DNA from: Octopus vulgaris
Taxonomy: Eukaryota
DNA: 64,000 nt
Reading direction: 5' to 3'
Assembly (NCBI GenBank): GCA_951406725.2
Contig: OX597827.1
Location: forward strand, 5,766,001-5,830,000
Part shown: positions 34,295 to 34,899 of the stretch, in pieces
Position numbering within the stretch: position 1 is the first letter of the stretch
Layout: every line of letters starts with the position of its first letter
Notes under the pieces: model-generated
The model's input: the letters and a program-made list of their open reading frames with translations, nothing else
Databases searched by the model: none
What the model was told of the DNA's origin: nothing
Made by a program: the position numbers and the translations under genes

Positions 34295-34899
34295 TAATTC
34301 AATAAAAATGGTAAATAATTTTCCTGTGGTTTATCATGTAACCAACGATTATTTACCGGTAAATTTCGGTATGTAAATACGACAAATTAATTGTCAGGAC
34401 CTTTTTAAGGTTCAGTATATAGTAAAGAAAAAATAAGAAGGTTAACAGCAGGCTGTTTCACCTCATACCGAAGGAATTAGAAATGGCAGTCAAAGACCGT
34501 TTTTCCAATTTCTATAAGTGGAGAATCCAAAAACGAAGGCCCTTACGGCTCACATACACAAAACCGGAGTGGCAAATATACGAATTCAGTCACTTACCGT
34601 TAATAGCGAACATATGTTTCTGGATCGCAAACATAGAAATCAGTTTGAATTCCATCATTAGCGCCGATGACGGAATTCAAACTGATTTCTATGTTTGCGA
34701 TCCAGAAACATATGTTCGCTATTAACGGTAAGTGACTGAATTCGTATATTTGCCACTCCGGTTTTGTGTATGTGAGCCGTAAGGGCCTTCGTTTTTGGAT
34801 TCTCCACTTATAGAAATTGGAAAAACGGTCTTTGACTGCCATTTCTAATTCCTTCGGTATGAGGTGAAACAGCCTGCTGTTAACCTTCTTATTTTTTCT
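34295..34899. mobile_element. Palindromic HHR-containing insertion (Penelope-like / retrozyme-like)
   Basis: 233-bp inverted arms at 34426-34658 and 34667-34899 with one mismatch seen and an 8-nt spacer. The left arm extends about 130 bp further. Flanks are TA-rich microsatellite. Confidence 0.8.
34659..34721 (+). ncRNA. Type I hammerhead ribozyme, U4C core variant
   Basis: UAGCG-CCGAUGA-[CGGA..CAAAC..GUUUG..UCCA, 34 nt]-GAAAC-AUAU-GUU^CGCUA. Stem I is 5 bp and loop 3 is palindromic. Confidence 0.8.

Follow-up and report, generated by a model that had tools for sequence, protein, structure and literature searches.

The window analysed here is a 64,000-nucleotide stretch of Octopus vulgaris contig OX597827.1, and the element under study, at 34295..34899, is one copy of a tandem unit, non-coding and 549 bp long, that inserts in (TA)n sites. 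With unit numbering started at the first base of stem I of a hammerhead-like motif, the copy maps onto the unit as two head-to-head arms: a long arm on the minus strand (34295..34658, unit positions 10-373, the start at unit position 10 being assigned by hand), which ends at a terminus termed E1, and a short arm on the plus strand (34659..34899, unit positions 2-242), which stops a few bases before the modal position of a second terminus, E2. The ~121-nt tail between E2 and E1, whose family-wide positions are ~252 and ~372, is present on the long arm only (34295..34415, minus strand). A 14-bp target-site duplication frames both ends, E1 at the left and the slightly short E2 at the right, its left copy lying in a TA-rich site at 34283..34296 and the identical 14-mer at 34899..34912 (both plus strand). 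The unit has a G+C content of 39% (216/549); an ORF with RT plus GIY-YIG was found neither in the unit nor in the window, and tblastn with a PLE protein gave no match in the window.

A near-perfect palindrome with 233-bp arms and one mismatch had been proposed in the preliminary description, and direct comparison of the arms bears this out. The inverted repeat comprises 34423-34658 and 34667-34902 (236 nt each, 99% identity, 8 nt between), and exact base-by-base comparison places its mismatches at 34425, on the outer edge, and at 34654, internally; 34426-34658 is the 233-nt arm with one mismatch, and the loop is 34659-34666. The inversion junction (34658/34659; feature 34658..34666) is blunt and has no microhomology, and the 8-nt loop corresponds to unit positions 2-9, found on the plus arm only, just as unit positions 253-373 are private to the other arm. 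The fold of the whole element reaches -457 kcal/mol, whereas its shuffles average -131 and 0 of 20 do as well; in Rfam, the palindrome matched hairpin (miRNA) models below threshold and nothing else, these matches being due to the palindrome itself.

The axis carries a type I hammerhead-like motif (34659..34721, plus strand), recognized from the sequence, from a descriptor with shuffled controls and from the family haplotypes, with a predicted ribozyme function. In this motif, 34659-63 pairs with 34717-21 to form stem I, the core CCGAUGA at 34664-70 is of the U4C type, the long stem II has a C·A at its base, its first pair being mismatched, GAAA occupies 34705-08, a palindromic stem III spans 34708-15, and the triplet is GUU, with a predicted cut at 34716/34717. 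The type I hammerhead descriptor matches at 34664 and in four units of a 594-bp family within the window, and in 0 of 50 shuffled windows. Searching the Rfam hammerhead families gave no match at the gathering score and none among the 24 matches at E<=10, and the best fold of the isolated motif is not the hammerhead (-9.5 versus -7.1 kcal/mol; z=0.57). Mapping to the unit agrees with the earlier statement that the minus arm begins inside the hammerhead core; the long arm lacks stem I and core C3-G5, such that the ribozyme cannot form from it. The plus arm had been said to start at the first base of stem I, which needs correcting: stem I of the family is 6 bp long, so 34659 is its second base and the arm lacks the first. 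A splice-donor-like hexamer, GTAAGT, lies at 34729-34734, 12 nt past the predicted cleavage site of the 549-bp unit; Penelope pLTRs can contain introns.

We mapped 149 loci of the family, made up of the 30 best DNA matches, 30 of the 169 exact matches that a 19-nt hammerhead pattern has in the 2.8-Gb genome, a further 39 out of the first 100 of those pattern matches, 46 new loci out of 56 obtained by anchoring at the long end, and four more DNA matches; the E1-anchored sample is independent of the hammerhead sequence. Removing 22 overlapping loci and two probable segmental duplicates left 125 distinct insertions, whose flanks are (TA)n or AT-rich and which hold 137 complete hammerhead motifs, one per tandem unit. 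A family consensus, with CUGAUGA or CCGAUGA and with tandem copies, had been named as informative in the preliminary description: CCGAUGA predominates as the core (97 of 137 complete units, with canonical U4 in 39 and CCAAUGA in 1), and tandem copies of the palindrome unit do occur, at 549-bp spacing. All five stem I pairs are kept in 135 of the 137 units, as expected if homologues conserve the hammerhead pairing, and stems I and III of the 594-bp family differ in sequence and are still paired. The triplet is GUC in 62 units and GUU in 75. While the window copy has one complete hammerhead, other copies, e.g. L002, have at least two consecutive ones. Set against the type I consensus CUGANGA ... 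GAAA ... NUH, the window copy agrees at GAAA and in its GUU triplet and departs from it at U4C. U4C lowers hammerhead activity in vitro yet supports viroid infectivity in vivo, according to PMC3088659.

The internal arm mismatch (34654, plus strand) does lie at the base of stem II, where the left arm had been described as offering a U-A and the right arm a C-A, and this contrast proved to carry no weight: at unit position 14, 148 of 160 units have C and 11 have A, and T occurs only in the window left arm, where it is a private C-to-T change on the sense strand at a CpG, in an arm devoid of stem I and of half the core. Judged from the sequences of the family, the C·A at stem II and the CCGAUGA core are the family state, and the left-arm U is a private change with no function.

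A sister insertion of the 594-bp family lies at 51200..54025; it is head-to-head with one long and one short end, the same layout as in the 549-bp family, and contains four hammerhead motifs with a CUGAAGA core. The palindrome unit had been taken for a diverged relative of this family, and three features support the kinship: a 54-bp match at 78%, a hammerhead located 116-129 nt upstream of a shared module in both families, and within that module a predicted 9-bp helix (34365..34472, minus strand; 34464-34472 with 34365-34373) that encloses E2 and is common to the 594-bp and other sister families. In an alignment of 11 representatives, 98% of the cells of this helix are paired, mostly through invariant pairs or G-U changes, with one two-sided change; over 16 predicted pairs, 94% of cells pair versus 88.5% in shuffled and 21-49% in slid controls, figures which, given that the structure was derived from the alignment on which it is scored and that the sequences are related, amount to support rather than proof. 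Genome-wide, 2,175 exact matches were obtained for the motif that the 549-bp family shares with its 594-bp relative and the remaining sister families. Several further sister families are visible in L183-L212 and among the shared-motif matches, many of them being short palindromic insertions seemingly devoid of a hammerhead, and L019:600-900 represents a further hammerhead family, tandem and inverted, with a CCGAUGA core, a C·A at the base of stem II and a distant trace of the module.

Inverted insertions account for 76 of the 125, every one head-to-head and none tail-to-tail, and the other 49 are in a single orientation. The outer ends of the inverted copies cluster at E1 (unit ~372) and E2 (~252), and among the 49 copies in which both ends are classifiable, 48 pair one E1 with one E2. 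In the remaining copy, L084, an E1-like terminus lies past a deletion, and in 27 of the 76 one or both ends lie away from E1/E2. Outside the E1-anchored sample the pairing is found in 25 of 26 copies (p=4e-7). Both arms belong to one subfamily in 57 of 59 testable copies, a figure to which later gene conversion could have contributed. Besides the 14-bp duplication of the window copy, six other inverted copies have interrupted 14-16-bp duplications; an informative flank repeat is present in 18/76 inverted copies versus 86/901 mismatched controls, and seven of these are interrupted 14-16-mers. Seven of the 54 E1-anchored insertions (L105, L109, L111, L123, L129, L130, L140) consist of a tail-only arm, E1-ended and stopping at unit 242-254 near E2; this pile-up of E1 arms may reflect a block at E2 or TA microhomology.

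An abundant young autonomous PLE of the same genome (L151:1211-3100, L213-L242, L273-L292), with an RT and, by eye, a C-terminal GIY-YIG-like region, presents the same anatomy. It provided 20 head-to-head pairs, and the long+short arrangement holds in all 18 that could be classified (17 by script and L274 on inspection, with two left unclassed), its two ends being 72 nt apart. The hammerhead of its pLTR has the U4C state (CCGA core) in 68 of 69 motifs, from loci that partly overlap, and all are GUU; the U4C core thus recurs in three families, namely the 549-bp unit, this autonomous PLE and the L019 family. Inverted copies, junction palindromes and one-sided tails have already been published for Penelope elements (PMC8557442, PMC3846280). 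Among the mainly open-access main texts searched, we found no printed count of long+short pairing.

A hammerhead at the axis was the central claim of the preliminary description; the conserved hammerhead-like motif is indeed there, while a special link between axis and ribozyme is not supported, the axes being scattered over the unit. Near-palindromic junctions occur in 22 of the 76 inverted copies, with axes spread over unit positions 2 to 543. Four of these 22 lie at the 5′ edge of the hammerhead (p=0.03), an inflated count, as one of the four is the window copy and two come from hammerhead-conditioned samples; in the hammerhead-independent, E1-anchored sample without the window, 1 of 13 does so (p=0.53). 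An axis defined by self-cleavage is ruled out: the palindrome axis lies ~55 nt upstream of the predicted cleavage site, and 45 of 51 arm-units that reach unit 72-75 continue through that site. The position of the axis at the hammerhead is therefore probably incidental, and a mild hot spot at the hammerhead edge, e.g. a transcript start, is possible. The two inner ends of a copy do tend to lie close together, within 30 nt in 17 of 48 E1+E2 pairs (permutation mean 6.7, p=5e-5) and in 11 of the 23 that are E1-anchored (p=0.001), and this closeness is not significant in the autonomous PLE (3/17, p=0.14). A leader-follower model, with the RT started at E1 halting behind the one started at E2, is only suggested by counts of 10 versus 2 among E1-anchored pairs and 12 versus 6 overall, and the pattern was not seen in the autonomous PLE.

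The window element is a 5′-truncated head-to-head insertion of a non-coding 549-bp hammerhead unit, which we consider likely to have been mobilized in trans by a PLE, and its axis probably lies at the hammerhead by chance. Under this model, a Penelope RT/GIY-YIG dimer would bind an uncleaved RNA, multimeric or circular, at its conserved helix module and nick both strands of the TA site ~14 bp apart; one cDNA would be primed at E1 and the other at E2, on opposite target strands, and host repair would join the cDNA 3′ ends. Where both cDNAs halt near the same template position, as they would have done in the window copy (10 and 2), a near-perfect palindrome would result. Transcription reading through the element would lock the hammerhead into a 233-bp duplex, so that the window copy is likely a dead end and a source of dsRNA. 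A PLE from an anole, assayed in vitro, nicks and extends both target strands and initiates RT at two internal positions matching the genomic tail, with hammerhead cleavage unneeded (PMC11167929), and inverted 5′-truncated copies, one-sided tails and a (TA)n bias are PLE traits (PMC8557442). An autonomous partner sharing the unit sequence was found in neither of the two abundant PLE families compared, and a search with the upstream part of the unit led to three new mapped loci, again with no such partner. Among 19 shared variants (A>G 5, T>C 5) there is no RNA-editing signature of the template strand; the corresponding counts for the autonomous PLE are 4 and 3 of 19.

The hammerhead region could instead set the axis itself, if both cDNAs run off at the 5′ edge of stem I because a transcript starts there or the RT meets a barrier. 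We regard this as unlikely: three other independent copies (L039, L070, L104) turn at that edge, 6 of 89 inner ends of the E1-anchored sample, two of them the window's own, fall at unit 540-15 and none at 16-40, and PLE promoters have been located in pLTRs (PMC6765202), but the enrichment disappears in the hammerhead-independent sample, inner ends are densest elsewhere, at ~90-140 and ~240-255, and the cleavage site is touched by just one near-palindrome out of 22. The private sequence on each arm and the blunt junction rule out that one target-primed cDNA folded back on itself, as neither arm can then be a fold-back copy of the target-primed other. In a related model inferred for rotifer Penelope from head-to-head palindromic junctions (PMC3846280), the antisense strand folds back, primes itself and extends, and the endonuclease trims the ends at E1 and E2. 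The correlation of inner ends, and the further extension of the E2 arm in most near pairs (12 versus 6), as a hairpin would allow, agree with such self-priming; yet inner ends are far apart in 31 of the 48 pairs, the window junction offers no microhomology to prime a fold-back, several other junctions (L100, L113, L107) have short templated insertions instead, and priming in vitro takes place on the sense template, at two sites (PMC11167929), making this model improbable for the present family.

An assembly or library fold-back artefact is very improbable. Long palindromes are a recognized class of chimera, and among the contigs of four DNA or unlabelled runs compared with 34630-34895, contigs being prone to drop rare variants, none spans the junction, and one ends at 34659 with upstream sequence of the ordinary tandem. 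The arms, however, are unequal in length, differ by one base and end at the two fixed ends of the family, a 14-bp duplication frames the element, 75 other loci have the same architecture, and a fold-back chimera would have mirrored the flank as well.

Extending the trans-mobilization model, we tentatively propose, at somewhat below even odds, that one subunit of a Penelope RT dimer always takes the long site and the other the short site, on the same RNA species and on opposite strands, that retrozymes would use this dimer via the helix module, and that the U4C core in three families would be tolerated or protein-assisted. If true, this would account in one step for the tails of Penelope elements, for head-to-head inversions and for the palindromes at junctions. 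Taken singly, this palindrome is nothing unusual for a Penelope-type insertion, and more weight falls on the family statistics; what is of interest is how strictly the ends pair and that the U4C core recurs. The near-strict long+short rule, seen in a retrozyme as well as in an autonomous PLE, connects the inverted structure with the two RT starts observed in vitro, yields a sharp biochemical prediction, and ties the retrozyme to the PLE machinery by insertion anatomy, beyond phylogeny. Both the origin of Penelope inverted repeats and one-sided tails (PMC8557442) and the mobilization mechanism of animal retrozymes (10.64898/2026.07.22.740005) are stated as open in those sources.

The 549-bp family is a new non-LTR retrozyme family with the known Penelope insertion shape. 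As in the animal non-LTR retrozymes described in PMC7229834 and 10.64898/2026.07.22.740005, it is made of non-coding tandem units with one type I hammerhead each, and it shares with them the 39% GC, a target duplication >4 bp and the co-occurrence with autonomous PLEs. Its 549-bp unit exceeds the 150-450 bp given in PMC7229834 and is within the 51-972 bp of 10.64898/2026.07.22.740005. In contrast to what these sources describe, it has a U4C core and a long stem II, and its short arrays (arms of at most ~4 units) have two fixed ends and are for the most part inverted. The main text of the 2020 retrozyme paper (PMC7229834) does not contain the word “inverted,” and the available text of PMC13282606 mentions neither hammerhead nor ribozyme. 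With an “active” copy defined by two consecutive complete hammerheads (10.64898/2026.07.22.740005), the window copy, having one, falls outside that definition.

As regards EN+ PLE insertions (PMC8557442, PMC3846280, PMC11167929), the resemblance covers the head-to-head inverted 5′-truncated copy, the junction palindromes, the tail at one end, the (TA)n targets and a hammerhead upstream of two 3′ ends; the differences are the lack of an ORF, a tail of ~121 nt versus the published 30-40, the lack of a matching autonomous partner in the two PLE families, and the strict one-long/one-short pairing counted here. The motif resembles the PLE-associated type I hammerheads of PMC4209133 in its topology, in a short palindromic helix III suited to dimers and in an irregular helix II base from which low activity is expected, and it differs from them in the U4C state of 97/137 units, C·A or A·A at 10.1-11.1, a GUU or GUC triplet and a stem II region of 34-41 nt. 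The proposed mechanism also recalls the twin priming of L1 elements. There too, two target-primed cDNAs give a repair-joined inversion, but with a variable second priming site and arms free of overlap; in the present family that site is fixed, and palindromes arise from arms that cover overlapping stretches of the template.

The genome also holds a second abundant young PLE with 811-aa open frames (L122, L150, L153-L182), which we take to be Neptune-type from its CxxC linker. Its copy in L150 is head-to-head with one short and one long end, and the descriptor detected no hammerhead in the parts examined. The ORF beside L122, considered as a helper of the 549-bp unit, belongs to this separate Neptune-type PLE, has no similarity to the unit and was rejected. 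Unrelated type I hammerheads, mostly with a palindromic stem III, are present in the flanks of L006, L008, L066, L083, L091, L096, L118, L129, L134, L137, L183 and L189, pointing to a genome rich in such families. Finally, the window contains a SINE-like dispersed repeat of ~420 bp that has many copies, 85-94% alike, at 11144-11572, 21408-21830, 24831-25234, 36590-37004, 47201-47631 and 56600-57025.
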